Shown piece by piece: positions 3,931 through 64,000 of a stretch of DNA of 64,000 nt. The position numbers and the translations under genes are program-made. Position 1 is the first letter of the stretch, and each line of letters begins with the position of its first letter. The notes beneath the pieces were generated by a model that saw only the letters and a list, made by a program, of their open reading frames with translations, was not told where the DNA came from and made no database searches. Origin of the DNA: Patescibacteria group bacterium (GTDB lineage Bacteria; Patescibacteriota; UBA1384; XYA2-FULL-43-10; 1-14-0-10-43-13); NCBI GenBank assembly GCA_041666325.1, contig JBAYHC010000004.1:929-64928 (forward strand). The letters run 5' to 3'.

Positions 3931-4049
3931 AGTCTATTCCTTCACAATCTTTGAATCACTAATTCATAGGTGCTTTAATATGTTACCACCCATGGCAGAT
4001 GAAAGCCATAACTTTGCTTGCAATTAATTAGATAAAAATAATCAAGTCT

Positions 4050-4099
4050 AAAAACAAAAAACCGGCGGCGGCCATATGAGTGGGCTTGCCAACCGGCGG
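4050..4099 (-). terminator. Rho-independent terminator for the 4105..4620 gene
   Basis: Minus-strand hairpin ccgccggttggc...gccgccgg followed by TTTTTTGTTTTT. Confidence 0.5.
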
Positions 4100-4104
4100 A
4101 AGAG

Positions 4105-4620
4105 CTACATCGGCACATCACGAGGCACAAAGTCCCTGAGTGAGTAGGAAAACGAAACCTGATTGTGAAGAATAATCTCGACATTCGCGCCAACTGCGAC
4201 CGCGCGGCCGATGTTCCAGGCAAGTTGATCACCTGCCTCGAGCGGCGACTCGACGACAATTCTCTCCCCCAGGTCCTCATCGAAAATAGTCTGTACCCTA
4301 GGAAAACAAGAATCTTTCGGAAAGAAAATCTCGGCGCCACTCGGCAAGACCATCTCGACATCCATGAAGTCATTCAGGGCACGAGCCAGGGGAAGACTGT
4401 CCTCATAGCTCATGTCGATCGAAGAATAGACTCGCACGTGCATGGTCGAACCAGCTCGCTTGCCTTCGGGTTTCAGCCAGCGCACCTTTGCTGCGTCGGG
4501 ATCAAAGAAAATACAAATCGTTTCATCAGCAAAGCGCGGATCAAGCCTCGTTCTCAGATACCCCTCGATAACATCAATATCATCCCCATTCGAAACGTCG
4601 AAGAATTCGTATCTTGGCAC
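4105..4620 (-). CDS. Hypothetical protein (higher GC than its neighbours)
   Basis: Intact 171-aa ORF with its own terminator. No motif recognised. Confidence 0.45.
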   Translation of the reverse strand: MPRYEFFDVSNGDDIDVIEGYLRTRLDPRFADETICIFFDPDAAKVRWLKPEGKRAGSTMHVRVYSSIDMSYEDSLPLARALNDFMDVEMVLPSGAEIFFPKDSCFPRVQTIFDEDLGERIVVESPLEAGDQLAWNIGRAVAVGANVEIILHNQVSFSYSLRDFVPRDVPM

Positions 4621-4730
4621 TCCATCTCTCCCTTCGCTTCGATGTCGATATTATACACTGTTGCCTGATTTTATCAACACAAAAAGACTGCCGGCGCAGA
4701 CCAGACACCTTCAAATCAGTCATTCTGCTC

Positions 4731-5198
4731 TCAAGAGATCAGGGATTGCATGTCGAGCAATACTTCGTCGGCGTGCTCGGCCGGCTTCACCTTAGGGTAG
4801 ATCTTGGCGATTTTGCCATCAGGATCGATCAAAAACGAGGACCGAATCACGCCCATATATTCGCGACCCATAAACTTTTTCTTTTGCCAAACACTATATG
4901 ACTGAACAGCCTCCTTGTTCTCGTCGGCCAGTAGAGTAAAAGGCAAGCTATACTTCTGTGCAAATTTCCTGTGGCTAGAAACCGAATCAACACTAACCCC
5001 CAGGACGACTGCGCCGAGATTATCAAACCTTGGTAGGTTATCTCTCATGCCGCAAGCTTCTGCCGTACAACCCGGAGTGTCATCCCTGGGATAAAAATAG
5101 AGCAAGACCCACTTGCCAACATAATCCCTCAATGAATGCGCTCCTCCCTCTGAGTCCGGTAGCGAAAAATCTGGAGCGCTATCTCCTGTTTTTAGCAT
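4731..5198 (-). CDS. bcp: Peroxiredoxin Bcp (thiol peroxidase, AhpC/TSA family)
   Basis: GDSAPDFSLPD...YFYPRDDTPGCTAEAC motif with the peroxidatic Cys in the TPGCT context. Confidence 0.85.
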   Translation of the reverse strand: MLKTGDSAPDFSLPDSEGGAHSLRDYVGKWVLLYFYPRDDTPGCTAEACGMRDNLPRFDNLGAVVLGVSVDSVSSHRKFAQKYSLPFTLLADENKEAVQSYSVWQKKKFMGREYMGVIRSSFLIDPDGKIAKIYPKVKPAEHADEVLLDMQSLIS

Positions 5199-9290: not shown

Positions 9291-9690
9291 ACCCCTCCAC
9301 CTTAGTCTGGATTCTAGCCCCAGGTGACTTCTTCGAACCTGAAAACTTTCACGCAGTTGATCAATGTCAGCGCCCAAGGCCCCTCGCTGCACTCAGGATC
9401 TCGGCTCTGCGCCTTGCTCCAACGATGAAATGTATATTTATTATACATTTCATGTCTAGGATTTATCAATACACCACAATAATCACAAAGGCATGATTAT
9501 CGTGAAAAATAGTTCTGCATGGTGTTTATACAGTCCTGCAAGCGAATAATTGGAAATATAACACTCTTGTCTCCTTGCGCCGCAGTACTATTTTCCAAAC
9601 CTACTCGAAAGTATCGGCAAAGCTCACAACTATTGATTTTCTCCAACCAGACAAGTTTTCGGTGCTACCCTTCTAAAAGCCAGTTCCACC

Positions 9691-26698: not shown

Positions 26699-26908
26699 GA
26701 TAACTCCAAGAATTAAGCGAGTAAGTGGATAAGCTAGTAGGCATATAGATTGGTAAGCAATGAAGCAAATGTCGATACAAATTGCGGCTTAGCTTACATA
26801 CTCCTTACCGCTTACTAGCTTACTGCTATTTCATGCATCTGCCAATCAGTCGCCGAGCGAGGTAACCTCCTGCCTACAGCGCTTGTTTGTTGGTATTTCT
26901 GCGACAAT

Positions 26909-34717: not shown

Positions 34718-34761
34718 TTGCGGGTCCTCCTCTCACTGTCGTTCCACCGAAGTGCAGCGTA

Positions 34762-34790
34762 ATTTTAGCATTATTTACACAGTAGGTCAA
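34762..34790 (-). promoter_or_regulatory. Sigma70 promoter TTGACC-N17-TAAAAT for paralog A
   Basis: On the minus strand: TTGACC (34785-34790), 17-nt spacer, TAAAAT (34762-34767). Confidence 0.5.
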
Positions 34791-36391: not shown

Positions 36392-36436
36392 TTGCGGCCC
36401 CTCCTTCCGTTCGTCGTTCTACCGAAGTGCAGCGTA

Positions 36437-36465
36437 ATTTTAGCATGAGCAACCGCAATCGTCAA
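36437..36465 (-). promoter_or_regulatory. Sigma70 promoter TTGACG-N17-TAAAAT for paralog B
   Basis: On the minus strand: TTGACG (36460-36465), 17-nt spacer, TAAAAT (36437-36442). Confidence 0.5.
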
Positions 36466-39698: not shown

Positions 39699-40304
39699 AT
39701 GGGTCAAGAAGATGAGAAGAAAAATGAACCGGGGATCATTCCCGCGCCACCAACTCCTACAGATGCGAGCAACGCTGCAGAGCAGTCAGATACGGCCCAA
39801 GCAGAGATGCAGCAAGTCGCCGCTCCGCCTATTAGTCCAACCGGCGCCCCTGCCCCAGCTGACCGCCAATACGCGGGATTCTGGATCCGCTTTCTTGCAC
39901 TCATTATTGATGGGATAATTTTGGGCATTGCCTTCATCCCGATTTTTGCCGTTTTGTCCGTCTTGAACATCGGCTCCTCACCGAGCATGTACTCTGTTGA
40001 TCCAGATTCCGGCGCCGGCTCAGCCTTCTCTCTGCCCAATCTGATTAAAACAGTCCTTGGCTGGATCTACTATGTTGTACTAAACGTTAAATTCGGCGGT
40101 AGTCTAGGCAAGATGGCATTAGGACTAAAGGTTATCGACGAGGCTGGTAACAGTGTCACTTACGCCACCGCTGCTATCAGAGAGATCGTCGGCAAAATTA
40201 TCTCCGCAATGGCCATTATGCTTGGTTACCTCTGGGTTGCCTTCGATCCCAAAAAACAGGCTTGGCATGACAAAATTGCCAAGACTTACGTCGTGCGCAA
40301 ATAG
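39699..40304 (+). CDS. RDD family membrane protein with Pro/Ala-rich N-terminal tail
   Basis: AAGGAG RBS. RFLALIIDGIILGI...WHDKIAKTYVVRK. Confidence 0.75.
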   Translation: MGQEDEKKNEPGIIPAPPTPTDASNAAEQSDTAQAEMQQVAAPPISPTGAPAPADRQYAGFWIRFLALIIDGIILGIAFIPIFAVLSVLNIGSSPSMYSVDPDSGAGSAFSLPNLIKTVLGWIYYVVLNVKFGGSLGKMALGLKVIDEAGNSVTYATAAIREIVGKIISAMAIMLGYLWVAFDPKKQAWHDKIAKTYVVRK

Positions 40305-42699: not shown

Positions 42700-42847
42700 C
42701 GCACTCCCTCCATAATATCCAAGTTACACAGCTCATAAGCAGGTAGGCCAGTAAGCATGTAAGCTAACCCGCAACCTATATCGATAGCTGCTTCATTATT
42801 CATTAACCTATCAGCCTGTATGTTTACTCGCCTACTTGCTTACCAGC

Positions 42848-47811: not shown

Positions 47812-47892
47812 AACAAAATTGCTTTTTCTCCAATCTATTATATAGCAAATTGACTCAAATCTCAAAACAAAATGCTCAACGAAGCCACGAAG

Positions 47893-47924
47893 TGAATACC
47901 GCCGGCTCACGCCGGCGGTATTCA
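47893..47924. repeat. Perfect 14-bp-arm palindrome (gtgaataccgccgg-ctca-ccggcggtattcac); not followed by a U-run
   Basis: Perfect inverted repeat next to the RPE-like element. Possible protein-binding site or RNA hairpin. Confidence 0.45.
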
Positions 47925-47970
47925 CCGCTCTCAATAGTGGCTACGCCACCTCCGCCCAACTACACCCGTT

Positions 47971-48058
47971 GTCATCCTGAGTGGAACGAAGGATCTAGGT
48001 CGCCGCGGCGACCGCATGCGGCTTGCGCCTAGATTCTTCGCCTTCGGCTCGGAATGAC
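47971..48058. repeat. RPE/MITE-like palindromic repeat element, intergenic copy
   Basis: Imperfect about 30-bp terminal inverted repeats (gtcatcctgagtggaacgaaggatctagg / cctagattcttcgccttcggctcggaatgac) flank an internal core with the perfect palindromes gtcgccgcggcgac and ccgcatgcgg. A related copy lies at 62873-62968. Confidence 0.5.
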
Positions 48059-48157
48059 TTAAAAAATAGGATCGAATTTCTGGGTTCATGGCCCAACGGC
48101 TTGTGCCTAGATTCGAATTATGTTATAAGTATGCCAGTGTCGAAGGGAGAAGCGTGG

Positions 48158-49000
48158 ATGCAAAGAAAACCGGAAGGACACCCTCGCAACGAGGGTACGC
48201 CGAATCTTGTTGAGTTCCTCAACGCTCAACGTTATGTTAACGGCATTATGACCGGCGTCCACAACAGACGCTTGAATCAATGGCAGCATCACATCAACCC
48301 GGACCGGGCAGATGCCTTGTGCCAGGCGCTCAATGTTGGACCAATCGTCCTTACGCGATTGATGGCCGAATATAGCCAGAGCAGAGGGCTTCTGGCTGAT
48401 GCCATGGAGTTTAAGTCCGGCCTCTTGGCTCATGACCGCCGCACAACTCAGGCACGATTCATGACCATGCCTAAAGGGGCTACTGGTTGGCATGATGCCA
48501 ATGCGCAACTCGACGATTATCTGGAAGCACTTCACGAGCTTGAATTGATCGACCTTGAGCACTCGTTGTGGAATATCGAAGTCCCCGATCTGAATGCGAT
48601 CAATATTTACCATCCGCTCCGTCGCAACGGACCCAATTTCCCGCCTGTTCTATGGGACAGGAAAGGGCCAAGGCCAGAACTCGAGTCGGCACGCTTGATT
48701 GACCTCCTCGATCTCATCCTGGACGCAGCCTGCGTCGCCGTGATGAAGGGTTGGAAAAGACGCTATGGCAGCGATAAGCGCAATTTTCTACCCTTCCCGC
48801 ACAACCATACGACCGGATGGACATCGCTTTGGATTAATAGCGACGAGGATGCTGCCAAAGACAAGGCTATCCTTCATGTGATGACTTCCCCTTGCTTCCA
48901 AGACGATCCTTGTATCATTCGTCTGATGAAGGGCGGAGCGAATCATCCCGCTGCCATTCCGTTCCTCGGATCTGGCGCGACTGACGACACCGCGGATTAA
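48158..49000 (+). CDS. Hypothetical protein (higher GC; start at MQRKPEG)
   Basis: GAAGGGAGAAG RBS. No motif recognised. Own terminator. Confidence 0.45.
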   Translation: MQRKPEGHPRNEGTPNLVEFLNAQRYVNGIMTGVHNRRLNQWQHHINPDRADALCQALNVGPIVLTRLMAEYSQSRGLLADAMEFKSGLLAHDRRTTQARFMTMPKGATGWHDANAQLDDYLEALHELELIDLEHSLWNIEVPDLNAINIYHPLRRNGPNFPPVLWDRKGPRPELESARLIDLLDLILDAACVAVMKGWKRRYGSDKRNFLPFPHNHTTGWTSLWINSDEDAAKDKAILHVMTSPCFQDDPCIIRLMKGGANHPAAIPFLGSGATDDTAD

Positions 49001-49068: not shown

Positions 49069-49093
49069 CCAGCGGGCCTCGCCCGCTTTTTTG
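49069..49093 (+). terminator. Rho-independent terminator (agcgggc-ctc-gcccgct + TTTTTT)
   Basis: GC hairpin plus U-run. Near-identical to the terminator at 49714-49737. Confidence 0.6.
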
Positions 49094-49147
49094 TTCGATG
49101 GAAATTGAATTTTGAAATGTACTGTGGTATAAGTAGTCTCAATCGCG

Positions 49148-49684
49148 ATGAAAGGACGAGCATCGATGCAAGCAGTGATCATGGCGATCAGCCTGAGCCG
49201 TTCAATTTGCGACAGACTTGGTACCCCTTTTCTTTCCGACGACGAGACAGACAAGATCAACACCTTGGATCAACTTGTCGCAGCACTCAATGAGCTAATG
49301 CGGCGAGAAGAACATCTGCTGCAACATCCTCTTGATGCCGGTCAATTGACCTGGCGTTACTCGCGGCCGACCAGGGGACGCGAAGTCTTGGGTCCAACTT
49401 TCGACCTCGATATGACCGAGGCAGCACACTACGCCAGTATCTATTACCTGCCCAACCGGTATGTCGTCGGCGTACTACTGGCCCCAGACAGTTGGCAGGG
49501 CCCCATCTGGCTGCGCATTCTCTACAATCTTCAGAAGGAGCAGCTCGACGACCACATCCATTATGATAGCCGCTATAACGACCTGGGCCCGGCCCAAAGA
49601 AGCATGCTTCGTCTCTTTCTCGGGCTTTACCCAAAGCTTTCTCATTTGTTCGAAATAAGCACAATCCAGATGCTAGCCGTTTGA
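49148..49684 (+). CDS. Hypothetical protein (higher GC)
   Basis: TATAAGTA -10-like box upstream. 178-aa ORF. Own terminator. Confidence 0.45.
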   Translation: MKGRASMQAVIMAISLSRSICDRLGTPFLSDDETDKINTLDQLVAALNELMRREEHLLQHPLDAGQLTWRYSRPTRGREVLGPTFDLDMTEAAHYASIYYLPNRYVVGVLLAPDSWQGPIWLRILYNLQKEQLDDHIHYDSRYNDLGPAQRSMLRLFLGLYPKLSHLFEISTIQMLAV

Positions 49685-49713
49685 CCACTCAGGCGTAACA
49701 ACATCACTCCATC

Positions 49714-49737
49714 CCGCGGGCTTCGCCCGCTTTTTTG
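49714..49737 (+). terminator. Rho-independent terminator (gcgggc-ttc-gcccgc + TTTTTT)
   Basis: Twin of the terminator at 49069-49093. Confidence 0.6.
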
Positions 49738-49740
49738 TAC

Positions 49741-61200: not shown

Positions 61201-62460
61201 CTAATGCTTCGCATCCGCCCAGTTGTCGCCCGACCCAGCCTCGACCACAAGCGGTACACAGAGATCAACAACATTCTCCATCACCTCTTTGATTTCTTTG
61301 ATGGCCTCGACGACCCCATCTTCCAAAACCTCAAAAATCAACTCGTCGTGCACTGTCAGAACCATCGTCCACTTCCGTTCTCCGCCCTTAGCCCTTTTCC
61401 CTAACTCAATCATCGCAAGCTTCAAAACTTCTGCTGCGCTGCCCTGGACAGGAGCATTGACCGCCATTCTCTCCTCGGCCTCTGCGGCATTATGGTTAAA
61501 CGAATTGATGTTTGAAAACTCACGACGAAAACCAAAAAGTGTCTCGGTGTAACCTTGGTCTTTGGCCTGCTTGATCATGTCTCCGCAATACTTTTTGATA
61601 CCGATATGAGTCTCAAAATAGCGCCGAATATATTGAATGGCTTTGTCTCGGCTAATTCGGAGAGCCTCAGACAGTCCGTATGGGCTCATGCCGTAGAGCA
61701 CGCCAAAATTTACCGTTTTAGCGATGCGCCTCTGGTCTGAGGTTACTTTATCAATTTGGGTATCAAATATCTCCGCTGCAGTCGCAGCATGGACATCGCG
61801 CCCACCCTCAAAGGCTTGGAGCATAACCGGATCCTGGGCAAGGCAAGCAACAATTCGAAGCTCGATTTGAGAATAATCGGCCGAAATAATCTTTGACCCC
61901 TCTGGCGCGATGAAGGCCTTTCTGATCTCTGCTCCCCAATCCCCCTTGATAGGGATGTTTTGCAAATTTGGGTTTGCCGAAGTCAGTCGTCCCGTCGATG
62001 TTTCCTGTCCGTAGGTCGTATGCAGCCTACCGTCCTTCCCCACCATCTCAGGCAATGGCTTGAGATAAGTCGAAAGAAGCTTGGCCAGCTCTCGATATCC
62101 CAGGAGCGGCTCGACGATTGGATGCTGATCAATTAGCTTCATGAGCTCAGAGGCGCCAGTCGACACACCGGACTTAGTTCGTTTCAAATCCTTAGTTGGA
62201 AGATTAAGTTTTTCAAACAAAATAATTGATAATTGCTGCGGCGAATTGATATTGAACTCCTCGCCGGCAAAGTGGTGAATGGCAGAAACCAATCCCTCAA
62301 TTTTCCCCTCGATATTTTCCTCCAATTGGCGCAAAACATCGCAATCTATCAAAACACCGACCTTCTCCATTTCACGCAAAACAGGCTCAACTTGTTTGTT
62401 GATTTCTGCCGATGTTATCTTGGGCAGTATAACGCCCTTTTCAGTTAAGTGTTTCCACAT
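61201..62460 (-). CDS. polA: DNA polymerase I, polymerase (palm/fingers/thumb) domain only, as a separate ORF
   Basis: Motif A DYSQIELRIVA, motif B RRIAKTVNFGVLYGMS, motif C VHDELIFEV. No 3'-5' exonuclease domain upstream. Confidence 0.85.
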   Translation of the reverse strand: MWKHLTEKGVILPKITSAEINKQVEPVLREMEKVGVLIDCDVLRQLEENIEGKIEGLVSAIHHFAGEEFNINSPQQLSIILFEKLNLPTKDLKRTKSGVSTGASELMKLIDQHPIVEPLLGYRELAKLLSTYLKPLPEMVGKDGRLHTTYGQETSTGRLTSANPNLQNIPIKGDWGAEIRKAFIAPEGSKIISADYSQIELRIVACLAQDPVMLQAFEGGRDVHAATAAEIFDTQIDKVTSDQRRIAKTVNFGVLYGMSPYGLSEALRISRDKAIQYIRRYFETHIGIKKYCGDMIKQAKDQGYTETLFGFRREFSNINSFNHNAAEAEERMAVNAPVQGSAAEVLKLAMIELGKRAKGGERKWTMVLTVHDELIFEVLEDGVVEAIKEIKEVMENVVDLCVPLVVEAGSGDNWADAKH

Positions 62461-62534: not shown

Positions 62535-63701
62535 TTAAAGTTCCAATCTTAGTTGATCATCTTTCTTCCCCTGTTCTTCCGTTCTTTGGTTTTTTGGTTC
62601 TTTGGTTTCTGCCCAACCCTTCGAGAAACGCATCAGCAATGATCTGAATTCTAGCTCCTCAAAGAGCTGGCGCAACTTGTCCTTATCATACTGCCCCCAA
62701 CGCGCGCCTTCAAGGTCAAACCCTATTGGCACATCGCGCCGGATAGTTGCGAGGTGCTGCGACATAAAAGCCTGATCCTTGTATTCGATGAGAAGTCTAA
62801 GAATGCGTTCCTTAATGCCAAGCTCTTTTGCCTTTACTTTTAGAATGTCATCCCTTATTCCTTCTTTATTATCCTGAACGTCGTCCCCTTTGTCATCCTG
62901 AACGTCAGTGAAGGATCTAGGCGAAGCCGCATGCGATCGCCGCGACGACCCAGATTCTTCGCGGAGTTTACCCTGAGCTTGTCGAGTGAGCTCAGAATGA
63001 TGTCCAGAAAGAGATTTCTCAATTTCTTGGTATATTTTCTCCAGCGTATCAAACCTCAAAAGCAATTCAGTCGCAGTCTTAGGTCCTATTCCAGGAATTC
63101 CGGGAATGTTATCTGATGCGTCCCCCATGAGGGCCTTCAAATCGATAAAATCTTTGGGTTCAAGATTGTAGACTTCCTTGAGATGACTGGTGTCAAAAAC
63201 TTCAGCCTCGCTAAAGCCATGCTTTAGCATCAAGACCCTGACATGGCCATTTAGAAGTTGGTAAACATCACGATCGCCCGAAGCAATGTACACGACTAAG
63301 TCGTCCCCTGGAACCTGACACTTTTTATTGTGGCCGTTACAAAACTCAACAATTGTTCCAATTACATCATCTGCCTCGAAGCCCTCGACGGCATAGATCG
63401 GAATGCCAAAAGCGGCAAGCATCTCGCGTACCCGAGGAATCTGATCATAGAGTTCCTGATCAGCCTTAACTCGAGTCGCTTTGTATTCCTTGTATTCGAT
63501 ATGACGAAAAGTCGGTGCTGCCAAATCAAAAGAAGCAGCGAGATAGTCTGGTTTGATTTCCTCAAGGATTTTGATCAGGGCCAGAGCAAAGCCATAGGTT
63601 ACGTTGGTCAACTCGCCCTTCTTGTTTGAGAGGTTCTTGGGCAAGGCATGGTACGCCCGATGAACGATGGCGTTAGAGTCTATCAAAACTAATGTTTTCA
63701 T
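62535..63701 (-). CDS. polA: DNA polymerase I 5'-3' exonuclease (FEN) domain ORF, carrying an in-frame insertion derived from the palindromic repeat
   Basis: MKTLVLIDSNAIVHRAYHAL, an acidic metal cluster and the H3TH motif. The Ser/Arg/Asp-rich segment ESGSSRRSHAASPRSFTDVQDDKGDDVQDNKEGIRDD sits where the repeat lies. Confidence 0.85.
   Translation of the reverse strand: MKTLVLIDSNAIVHRAYHALPKNLSNKKGELTNVTYGFALALIKILEEIKPDYLAASFDLAAPTFRHIEYKEYKATRVKADQELYDQIPRVREMLAAFGIPIYAVEGFEADDVIGTIVEFCNGHNKKCQVPGDDLVVYIASGDRDVYQLLNGHVRVLMLKHGFSEAEVFDTSHLKEVYNLEPKDFIDLKALMGDASDNIPGIPGIGPKTATELLLRFDTLEKIYQEIEKSLSGHHSELTRQAQGKLREESGSSRRSHAASPRSFTDVQDDKGDDVQDNKEGIRDDILKVKAKELGIKERILRLLIEYKDQAFMSQHLATIRRDVPIGFDLEGARWGQYDKDKLRQLFEELEFRSLLMRFSKGWAETKEPKNQRTEEQGKKDDQLRLEL
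62873..62968. repeat. Second, degenerate copy of the RPE/MITE-like repeat, lying in-frame inside the polA 5'-3' exonuclease ORF
   Basis: Shares gtcatcctgaacg...gaaggatctagg...gccgcatgcg...cgccgcg...agattcttcgc with 47971-48058. It also carries a short internal duplication (atcctgaacgtc twice). Confidence 0.45.
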
Positions 63702-63711
63702 TGAGGAGCAT

Positions 63712-64000
63712 TCATTTAATTAAATTTGCAACAATCTTTACCATAGTCTCTTTCTCGCTCGGACCAGAAACAGCCACAAGCAAGGCCAGTGAAACCAGAG
63801 CACGCTGATCGATATTAACTATACCATTTTGGTTCAAATAGTACACAAAGAGCATCGAAGCAATCCGCTTGTTGCCGTCATAGAAGGGATGGTCCTTGAT
63901 GACGAAATAAAGCAAGTGAGCCGCTTTCTCCTCAACGCTTTTGTAAAGATCCTCACCACCGAATGACTGATACAGATTGCCCAAAATACCGACAAATTTG
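63712..64000 (-). CDS. Doc/Fic-family toxin (death-on-curing type); the N-terminus lies beyond the right window edge
   Basis: HPFYDGNKRIASMLFVYYL matches the Doc motif HxFx(D/N)(A/G)NKR. Confidence 0.6.
   Translation of the reverse strand, partial: KFVGILGNLYQSFGGEDLYKSVEEKAAHLLYFVIKDHPFYDGNKRIASMLFVYYLNQNGIVNIDQRALVSLALLVAVSGPSEKETMVKIVANLIK

Follow-up and report, generated by a model that had tools for sequence, protein, structure and literature searches.

A probable cross-phylum family of REPIN-like palindromic repeats and its in-frame copy in a Patescibacteria exonuclease gene

Analysis of a stretch of Patescibacteria DNA (64,000 nt; hereafter the window) revealed two related palindromic elements, one of them (copy A) located between genes and the other (copy B) inside a gene for a 5'-3' exonuclease (FEN). 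Our preferred reading, to which we assign a probability of roughly 0.8, is that both copies are non-autonomous REPIN-like doublets of one cross-phylum family, and that copy B is translated within a tolerant loop of the FEN protein. To judge from their sequences, the two copies belong to a very large family that extends across phyla. This family, its REPIN-like arms with two covarying base pairs, and the recurrent use of the FEN loop as a landing site go beyond the preliminary description of this DNA; a search of the literature found no published description of the elements.

Copy A is a complete 88-nt element on the plus strand (pos. 47971–48058), located in a divergent intergenic region with ftsK (minus strand) on one side and an ORFan gene on the other. 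Its left arm is 29 nt long (47971–47999) and its right arm 31 nt (48028–48058); the 28-nt spacer that separates them (48000–48027) holds GTCGCCGCGGCGAC and CCGCATGCGG, two small perfect palindromes, and both arms match the arm profile of the cross-phylum family. Folded as RNA, it forms one long hairpin (MFE -50.9 kcal/mol, z = -6.3), and none of 200 shuffled sequences folded as well. The preliminary description of this DNA had given the same coordinates, arms and two core palindromes for this copy, and we find it just as described there. A fragment of a further copy, comprising the end of a spacer and an inner arm (GGCTTGTGCCTAGATTCG), follows copy A on the plus strand at a distance of 40 nt (48097–48114; 18 nt, 94% identical to positions 49–66 of copy A, E = 0.015), and a weak match to positions 4–19 of the arm profile on the minus strand (9384–9399, TCGCTGCACTCAGGAT; E = 0.047) is a possible degenerate arm relic. 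An inverted pair at 39872–40014 was considered as another element and rejected; it lies inside a membrane-protein gene and was judged a chance occurrence. Copy A had also been proposed as the edge of a foreign insert of higher GC content. The rise in GC is small (0.53–0.545 versus 0.46–0.51) and the two ORFs of the supposed insert gave no match in Pfam, PHROG or PADLOC, so that nothing ties these ORFs to the element, and we dropped this interpretation.

The host gene of copy B (62535–63701, minus strand) encodes a stand-alone 5'-3' exonuclease/FEN of 388 aa with the Pfam domains 5_3_exonuc_N and 5_3_exonuc. An insertion in the polA 5'-3' exonuclease gene had been claimed before, and it is confirmed with the specification that polA is split here and that this gene forms its first half; a separate gene for the DNA polymerase A domain (PF00476; 61201–62460, minus strand), which is context and not part of the element, follows directly downstream. 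Copy B extends over 62892–63001 on the minus strand (110 nt), and not over 62873–62968 as previously delimited. It comprises a short arm (62892–62921), a spacer (62922–62948) and a long arm (62949–63001), the last being composed of an inner part (62949–62962), a 27-nt internal piece (62963–62989) and a terminal GCTCAGAATGAT (62990–63001). Within the window, A and B share a 53-nt core with 88.7% identity (blastn-short, E = 4e-9). The second copy proposed earlier is real and related to copy A, but its orientation is inverted: copy B must be read on the coding strand, which is the minus strand, to be colinear with copy A read on the plus strand, and the blocks seen before in direct orientation appear only because the element is palindromic. 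Adjacent to the short arm is a partial in-frame duplication of the arm terminus (62871–62891, minus strand), with ATCCTGAACGTC occurring exactly twice, 24 nt apart; similar partial arm duplications are located beside elements of other phyla (L029, L051 and L097). Copy B encodes residues 234–270 of the FEN protein (HHSELTRQAQGKLREESGSSRRSHAASPRSFTDVQDD) and the duplication residues 271–277 (KGDDVQD), and the reading frame is kept through both, in agreement with the in-frame insertion originally reported.

A profile of the arms, for which elements from other phyla alone were used, matched the window at 62892–62921 (E = 1e-7), 47971–47999 (E = 4e-7) and 48058–48028 (E = 7e-4), as well as both halves of the split arm of copy B; aside from the weak relic at 9384–9399 (E = 0.05), nothing else in the 64-kb window was significant. 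An ENA contig and a JGI/NCBI contig, which come from separate assemblies, have the same FEN sequence, which makes an assembly artefact unlikely. The similarity between A and B is not due to chance. The variable and hydrophilic character of FEN linkers in all orthologs would suit a reading in which the peptide is simply a low-complexity linker native to the protein, the similarity being accidental or the product of a chimeric assembly, but this reading is refuted by the E-value of the A/B match, the profile from other phyla and the identity of the gene in the two assemblies, and we give it practically no weight.

The description of the repeats as active or recently active was not borne out, since A and B are about 89% identical in the core only, with differing arms, and the ~81 kb of this genome that were covered contained no near-identical copies. 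The copies seen were these two plus fragments in the 64 kb, and two more, divergent family members in the 10 kb that follow the right end of the window. A metagenome scan with a spacer-specific pattern yielded five matches, none from the genome of the window, and this genome was also absent among the matches listed in a scan of a genome collection. The organism itself is a tiny groundwater-type CPR bacterium.

In the FEN protein, the insert site follows the H3TH region and precedes the C-terminal helices. An AlphaFold2 model of the window protein had pLDDT values below 50 for residues 252–281 and above 90 on both sides, and solved Pol I structures align only to residues 3–228 and 311–359. The insert is predicted to occupy a disordered surface loop, which accords with its earlier placement between the FEN core and the C-terminal helices. 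Alignment with FEN domains of relatives, which had been suggested as a check, showed that P0002 and P0003, the closest orthologs, have no such insert; their linkers measure 32 and 26 aa, respectively, versus 71 aa in the window protein. On the grounds of conservation, we assume that the protein with the insert remains functional.

A more distant ortholog, P0007, agrees with the window protein in the site, orientation, frame and long-arm variant of the insert. This agreement is what one would expect if the FEN segment were an ancient vertical linker, that is, a single insertion in the ancestor of the window and P0007 that was lost or overwritten elsewhere and is now decaying, with no ongoing mobility or conversion; the divergence of the window copies, with their duplication and fragments, also suits such a history. 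However, the long arm common to the two is 89.8% identical over 49 nt, whereas the host genes show 70.8% nucleotide identity and only 43.7% at third codon positions. A neighbour-joining tree without support values separates the two hosts by lineages that lack the element, and P0004, like P0002 and P0003, is a nearer relative than P0007 and has no element. Moreover, the spacer of copy B resembles that of intergenic copy A in the same genome and not that of P0007, while its long arm, a variant found also in P0007, L054 and small metagenomic ORFs, resembles that of P0007; copy B is thus a mosaic. We consider purely vertical descent of the segment unlikely.

The FEN loop is a recurrent landing site for palindromic repeats. 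Among 119 Patescibacteria orthologs, in which the linker ranges from 7 to 72 aa, at least 59 carry palindromic-repeat peptides in this loop; in at least 30 of them, the window protein and 29 found by pattern, the peptide is of the TGTCAT...ATGACA type, and in at least 29 it is of other palindrome types. At least four different palindromic families occupy the loop in about half of the orthologs, and DNA hairpins were confirmed there in P0007, P0053, P0043, P0026 and P0045. This hot spot could reflect targeting instead of survivorship. A related element was also found in frame in an RsmI-like methyltransferase gene of another Patescibacteria genome (L054), and related elements read in the same frame yield the conserved peptide CHSE..QGKLREES..ASPRSF..QDD in the P0007 FEN and this RsmI-like protein.

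The inner-stem pattern of the family was detected at a minimum of 120 genomic loci in Acidobacteriota, Chloroflexota, Planctomycetota, Bacteroidota, Proteobacteria, Patescibacteria, Saccharibacteria and others, and nearly all of these loci share the same outer arms. Members of the family have two inverted arms of ~29 nt (consensus YGTCATCCTGAGCGAAGCGAAGGATCTGGG; family consensus arm GTCATCCTGAGCGAAGCGAAGGATCT) that enclose a variable GC-rich spacer, with the termini YGTCAT...ATGACR, and the arrangement of two inverted units around a short spacer is found in both window copies and at most of the 120 loci listed. The arms are also conserved in many IMG/VR viral contigs, and a single Thermoanaerobaculia MAG contains dozens of elements. 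A search of the whole window against Rfam at gathering score returned no family, and both copies at E ≤ 10 gave chance-level matches only (E ≥ 0.2). BLAST of the consensus element against PLSDB plasmids and INPHARED phages gave no match, and a profile of the encoded peptide, run against a set of 5.8 billion proteins, recovered only 14 tiny repeat-derived ORFs and missed even the FEN proteins.

Each arm is a stem-loop of its own, in which ATYCT is paired with AGRAT, followed by an internal loop and a GCGNAGC mini-hairpin at the tip. Covariation within arms was evident at pair 1 (position 6 with 22: C-G 100, T-A 77, C-A 1, T-G 0; Fisher p = 2e-50), where it was replicated on IMG/VR contigs (T-A 85, C-G 56, T-G 1), and at pair 2 (position 11 with 17: G-C 120, A-T 18, others 4; p = 9e-19), with all of these counts representing sequences and not independent events, so that shared descent inflates them. 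Pair 2 assorts independently of pair 1, and the two arms of one element were discordant at pair 1 in 24 of 79 cases (30%); both observations argue against pure descent as the source of the covariation. The middle base of the triloop is free, all four bases being seen (in one set, A 50, C 51, G 24 and T 17); in the IMG/VR set the search pattern itself prescribed the G and A of the loop, and their conservation is indicated, informally, by the genome set alone. The arms of the window obey pairs 1 and 2 and fold into the same shape.

Examination of the ends revealed no target-site duplication at the window copies or across 91 family members (flanking direct repeats: 2 at k = 4, 0 at k ≥ 5; no enrichment). 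Self-folding arms and the lack of target-site duplications together make the architecture REPIN-like, with two inverted REP units, and not that of a classical MITE. The label "MITE-like" in the preliminary description was accordingly abandoned, as the arms are not simple terminal inverted repeats. A classical MITE would be a deletion derivative of a DDE-transposase IS, with double-stranded terminal inverted repeats, pasted with a target-site duplication. The elements do resemble MITEs in being small and non-coding, with inverted-repeat ends and many copies in some genomes, such as the Thermoanaerobaculia MAG; prokaryotic MITEs are small, non-autonomous and capable of forming hairpins from their inverted-repeat ends, and their in-frame insertions, or fusions, are known occasionally (PMC10969869). 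Correia, Nezha, Chunjie, ERIC, BOX and others are such MITEs, and the elements here likewise have terminal inverted repeats, formed by the arms of A and by the short and long arms of B. However, no parent IS with the same ends and no recurrent IS or transposase was found within 3 kb of the elements in the 120 loci listed, and neither the compensatory changes within the self-complementary arms nor the discordance between arms is predicted by recognition of double-stranded inverted repeats. With no duplication in any of the 91 elements, we judge a MITE origin improbable.

REPINs were reportedly defined by Bertels and Rainey in 2011 and by Nunvar et al. in 2010. As in REPs and REPINs, the unit described here is a short, imperfectly palindromic sequence whose 5' head is conserved, forms inverted doublets around a variable spacer with a hairpin of ~60–110 nt and no target-site duplications, and occurs in tandem, nested and partial copies beside each other. 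The differences are that the head is YGTCAT here and GTAG in known REPs, that no RAYT gene was found near the elements, and that, whereas REPs are extragenic by definition, copy B and many of its relatives are inside FEN and an RsmI-like gene and translated with them. We know of no description of REP/RAYT systems in some of the phyla harbouring this family, including CPR with their roughly 1-Mb genomes.

Rickettsia palindromic elements (RPEs) are palindromic repeats of ~100–150 bp without a transposase of their own in a small gene-dense genome, and are found repeatedly in frame in housekeeping genes; the peptide that they contribute is conserved, and they are presumed to be tolerable at surface positions (PMC10969869). 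The analogy to RPEs drawn earlier holds as far as behaviour goes: palindromic repeats lie in frame in FEN (window, P0007, P0053, P0043 and others) and in the RsmI-like gene of L054, the insertion is in a fold-compatible loop, and elements in the same frame yield the peptide CHSE..QGKLREES..QDD, shared by the window FEN, the P0007 FEN and the RsmI-like gene of L054. RPE families are defined within Rickettsia, whereas the present family is hosted by Patescibacteria and spans many phyla. Its REP-like covarying stem-loop arms are absent from the RPE definition, and here several unrelated palindromic families share one hot-spot loop.

Clustering of 2812 ORFs within 3 kb of elements revealed neither a recurrent partner gene nor a recurrent transposase in the 120 loci listed; the recurrent neighbours in these loci belonged to ordinary abundant families (histidine kinases, Ser/Thr kinases, peptidases and similar ones). 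Neighbour clustering and a crude motif scan found no RAYT gene in the window, its ~17-kb flanks or 240 loci, and a scan with the regular expression HUH...Y..NP, a weak and crude test, gave no match. Since no transposase was found, we infer how the elements move. Tentatively, and at somewhat worse than even odds, we suggest that an HUH/RAYT-like or similar enzyme may move or copy them in trans in the form of single-stranded DNA hairpins, or that they may spread by hairpin-driven recombination or gene conversion. The GCGNAGC tip of the arms, which we take to be the sequence of a very stable GNA-triloop DNA mini-hairpin, favours single-stranded DNA as the active form. Hirao et al. are said to have described d(GCGNAGC) in the early 1990s as an extraordinarily stable DNA mini-hairpin; unlike the elements, it is a structural motif and not a mobile-element family.

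The sequence and structure of the arms are conserved across phyla far past neutral expectation, the same linker is filled in at least half of the 119 orthologs, and copy A is just upstream of a promoter-like site for ftsK. These features raise the question of whether the hairpins are functional for the host and were recruited repeatedly, as a translation-pausing mRNA or ssDNA structure between the FEN subdomains, a protein-binding site, or a regulatory or terminator element. However, the families in the FEN linker show no sequence relationship to one another, and in many orthologs the linker measures 7–16 aa and holds no insert. There is no Rfam match, the RNA fold of copy B is only modestly better than shuffles (z = -2.5), and elsewhere most of the elements lie between genes and cluster or nest in the manner of selfish repeats. 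A host function is, in our estimation, a poor explanation for the repeats.

Under the preferred reading, that of REPIN-like doublets with copy B translated in FEN, copy B would have been inserted into, or converted into, the FEN gene at the surface loop that separates the H3TH region from the C-terminal helices. With no stop codon in that frame and a net length that preserves it, the element would be translated as an extra segment of ~44 residues, hydrophilic and largely predicted disordered, which the enzyme would tolerate. In gene-dense CPR genomes, permissive loops may be among the few places where a repeat can survive, so that the same FEN loop would have gathered different palindromic repeats in many lineages. 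A bolder and rather doubtful reading is that the YGTCAT...ATGACR doublets constitute an undescribed cross-phylum REPIN-like mobile system, working through ssDNA stem-loops with GCGNAGC tips, that actively prefers sites such as the FEN/Pol I linker. Resident hairpins could then attract new ones; alternatively, FEN flap or Okazaki-fragment processing could be mechanistically tied to propagation of the element. If such an active preference were true, the element would, on a major scale and to this day, supply essential genes of CPR with new sequence for protein loops.

To our knowledge, in-frame selfish palindromes in essential genes have been a textbook oddity known almost only from Rickettsia; Patescibacteria (CPR), whose genomes are likewise small and gene-dense, now show the same behaviour. 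On the practical side, such repeats yield many spurious small ORFs and inflate apparent protein diversity in metagenome catalogues. REP/RAYT systems are known in Proteobacteria, and the present family is a pointer to a REP-like single-strand hairpin mechanism far outside that phylum. It also provides a concrete, countable model for repeats that create new loop sequence in essential proteins.

The window, taken from a Patescibacteria (CPR) metagenome-assembled genome, contains a stand-alone 5′-3′ exonuclease gene (FEN; 62535–63701, minus strand, 388 aa) followed by a separate gene for the polymerase domain (61201–62460), so polA is split. The two genes are adjacent here, unlike in the genome of the Patescibacteria FEN ortholog P0007, where a RelB/ParE toxin–antitoxin pair lies between them (L126:4579–5126); directly upstream of the window FEN is a Fic/DOC (RhuM-Fic) gene (63712–63984, minus strand) that runs beyond the window. 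A palindromic repeat of 110 nt inside FEN (copy B; 62892–63001) encodes residues 234–270, and residues 271–277 are encoded by a partial duplication of its arm end (62871–62891; ATCCTGAACGTC occurs twice, 24 nt apart and in frame). An ENA assembly and a separate JGI and NCBI assembly encode the identical protein. Alignment with FEN of relatives, as suggested in the preliminary description, gave a linker of 71 aa in the window versus 32 and 26 aa in P0002 and P0003, the nearest orthologs (71% identity, BLASTP). FEN residues 3–228 aligned to the solved Pol I structures of M. smegmatis (6vde) and Taq (1taq), and a second block in 6vde paired residues 311–359 with chain residues 255–303, so that only about 16 chain residues bridge the two blocks. 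The insertion site is therefore the loop after the H3TH region, in agreement with its earlier placement between the FEN core and the C-terminal helices. In an AlphaFold2 model (mean pLDDT 79.9), residues 252–281 had pLDDT below 50 and no secondary structure, residues 235–250 formed a helix at modest confidence, and pLDDT exceeded 90 on both sides.

The other copy, copy A, is an intergenic 88-nt element (47971–48058) made up of a left arm (29 nt), a 28-nt spacer containing the perfect palindromes GTCGCCGCGGCGAC and CCGCATGCGG, and a right arm (31 nt); its RNA folded as a single long hairpin (−50.9 kcal/mol, z = −6.3). The in-frame palindromic repeat with an intergenic second copy, as first described, is real, but the orientation and boundaries given for copy B had to be revised. 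In a search of the window, copy B aligned best with copy A when inverted (88.7% identity over 53 nt, E = 4e-9); the direct-orientation blocks noted earlier exist because the element is palindromic. When species, each represented by a single genome, were scanned with a pattern limited to the inner stem (GAAGRATCTRGG, 10–40 nt, CCYAGATYCTTC), at least 120 loci were recovered, and outer arms (consensus GTCATCCTGAGCGAAGCGAAGGATCTGGG) were common to almost all of these listed loci, though absent from the search pattern. A profile built from 82 such arms, none of them from the window, matched the left arm (47971–47999, plus strand, E = 4e-7) and right arm (48058–48028, minus strand, E = 7e-4) of copy A, the short arm of copy B (62892–62921, plus strand, E = 1e-7), two further parts of copy B on the minus strand (profile positions 16–29 at 62962–62949, E = 0.016; positions 2–12 at 63000–62990, E = 1), and a weak relic (9399–9384, minus strand, E = 0.05), with no window matches beyond these six places. 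Copy B therefore spans 62892–63001, and in its second arm, a long variant, 27 nt (62963–62989) lie between the inner and terminal parts. Because the long arm, as the peptide ..HSE..QGKLREES.., was also found in the P0007 FEN, at locus L054 of another Patescibacteria genome and in small metagenomic ORFs, it is a family variant and not a unique accident.

Near copy A lie a fragment of another copy (18 nt; 48097–48114) and the perfect palindrome reported previously, which is corrected to a hairpin with 15-bp arms (47892–47925; GTGAATACCGCCGGC tcac GCCGGCGGTATTCAC); it lacks a T-run, occurs once in the window and is positioned between copy A and a promoter-like site for ftsK (47865–47837). The neighboring pair of ORFs (48158–49000 and 49148–49684) had been called a higher-GC insert; the GC rise is small, and neither ORF had a match in Pfam, PHROGs or PADLOC. 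Each of these ORFan genes is followed by a terminator-like hairpin (49069–49094 and 49713–49738; CCNGCGGGCYTCGCCCGCTTTTTTGT, 92% identical). Elsewhere in the window, a 34-nt direct repeat (34738–34771 and 36413–36446; 97% identity at a distance of 1.7 kb) and an inverted pair of 89 nt (26714–26802 and 42754–42842; 71% at 16 kb) may represent paralogous genes.

The inner-stem loci came from Acidobacteriota, Chloroflexota, Planctomycetota, Bacteroidota, Proteobacteria, Nitrospinota, Gemmatimonadota, Bacillota, Patescibacteria and Saccharibacteria among those listed. The window's own contig carries two more divergent, intergenic TGTCAT...ATGACA members in the 10 kb beyond the window's right end, at distances of about 3 and 8 kb (L130:6481–6577 and L130:about 1195–1350); in one of them an arm is chimeric, of the GGAATCCAGG type. 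The arm was also present in at least 120 IMG/VR contigs; either phages carry the repeats or many such contigs are host DNA. In one 9.8-kb ‘viral’ contig (3300045118_000738), the arm matched seven times, always on the same strand. A metagenome scan with a spacer-specific pattern yielded five unrelated loci, none from the window's genome. Fourteen catalogue ‘hypothetical proteins’ of 41–76 aa (P0121–P0134) are translated repeat arms (e.g., CHSEPFGYAQGKLREES), and so spurious gene calls. The element was absent from Rfam and from BLAST searches of plasmid and phage collections, and no paper on this family was found by sequence, peptide or topic. As far as could be found, the YGTCAT...ATGACR-type family is very widespread and apparently undescribed.

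Counted in arms whose two positions were not fixed together by the search, arm positions 6 and 22 (ATYCT...AGRAT) covaried in the genome set (C-G 100, T-A 77, C-A 1, T-G 0; p = 2e-50) and in an independent IMG/VR set (T-A 85, C-G 56, T-G 1). Positions 11 and 17 formed a second covarying pair (G-C 120, A-T 18, 4 others; p = 9e-19). The second pair assorts independently of the first: all four combinations were seen (72, 47, 11 and 7), evidence against a pair of linked haplotypes. The first pair was discordant between the two arms of one element in 24 of 79 elements; what is conserved is therefore the arm's own stem-loop, not the long inter-arm hairpin. The window arms satisfy both pairs and fold to the same shape. 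The arm tip reads GCGNAGC with a free middle base, the sequence of the unusually stable GNA-triloop DNA mini-hairpin. The flanks of 91 elements contained no target-site duplication and had a conserved Y at −1 and R at +1; partial arms occurred beside full elements at copy B and at four other loci (L029, L051, L067 and L097). Judged by the generally known features of REPs, REPINs and RAYTs, the plan of two inverted REP-like stem-loops is that of a REPIN and differs from that of a DDE-type MITE. The MITE label first applied is not supported; the description that fits the element best is a REPIN-like hairpin doublet that is translated inside a disordered FEN loop. Neither a transposase nor any other partner gene was found; the architecture and the lack of target-site duplications suggest that the element would move as an ssDNA hairpin, in a HUH/RAYT-like manner. 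The earlier likening to Rickettsia palindromic elements is right with regard to behavior; a MITE review (PMC10969869) is the basis for the comparison made here.

The window and P0007 contain related long-arm elements that share site, orientation and frame. For this arrangement, passive decay of a single old insertion is the less simple reading: identity in the shared long arm is 89.8% across 49 nt, against 70.8% nucleotide identity in host genes and 43.7% at third codon positions; P0002, P0003 and P0004, all without the element, separate the window from P0007 in an NJ tree that carries no support values; and the spacer of copy B is similar to the one in copy A of the window's genome, unlike that of P0007. 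These observations argue against simple vertical inheritance, and independent acquisition, gene conversion between elements or strong constraint on the arm sequence is the simplest reading. The family had also been proposed to be active or recently active; recent activity is not supported, and nothing suggests very recent bursts in the window's genome, about 81 kb of which contained no near-identical copies.

A close relative of copy B, sharing its long arm and reading frame (CHSEPFGLTQGKLREES..ASPRSFANAQDD), lies in frame at L054:4465–4524 within a gene (4009–4902, plus strand) for a 297-aa protein, which from the look of its sequence we take to be an RsmI-like methyltransferase. Among 119 aligned Patescibacteria FEN orthologs, the linker (the part aligned to window residues 225–296) ranged from 7 to 72 aa (median 35) and was at most 16 aa in 23. 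The TGTCAT...ATGACA-type peptide signature (start VI.. or.HSE..; end ..QDD/RND/RDD/AMT) was present in at least 30 of the 119 (29 by pattern plus the window's own protein), and in at least 29 the peptides were characteristic of three further palindromic families (LLNCSIADLTIEQFNN, ISKSEFLISNQIPNPND and NFQFSIFNFQ), making at least four palindromic-repeat peptide types in one loop. The DNA of P0007, P0053, P0043, P0026 and P0045 had a hairpin with (T)GTCAT...ATGAC(A) ends exactly at the linker in all five cases. Other arm families at the linker follow the same plan with other stems (ATTGC/GCAAT in P0045, ATTTC/GAAAT in P0026); judging from the peptides, the VIPAKAGIQ-type stem is presumably ATTCCCGC/GCGGGAAT. 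A second variable FEN loop, between GTIVE and YIASGD (alignment columns 240–290, window residues about 120–135), contains repeat-like peptides in some orthologs, e.g., P0005 and P0015, and may be a second permissive site. The disordered loop of FEN is a recurrent habitat for repeats in CPR bacteria.
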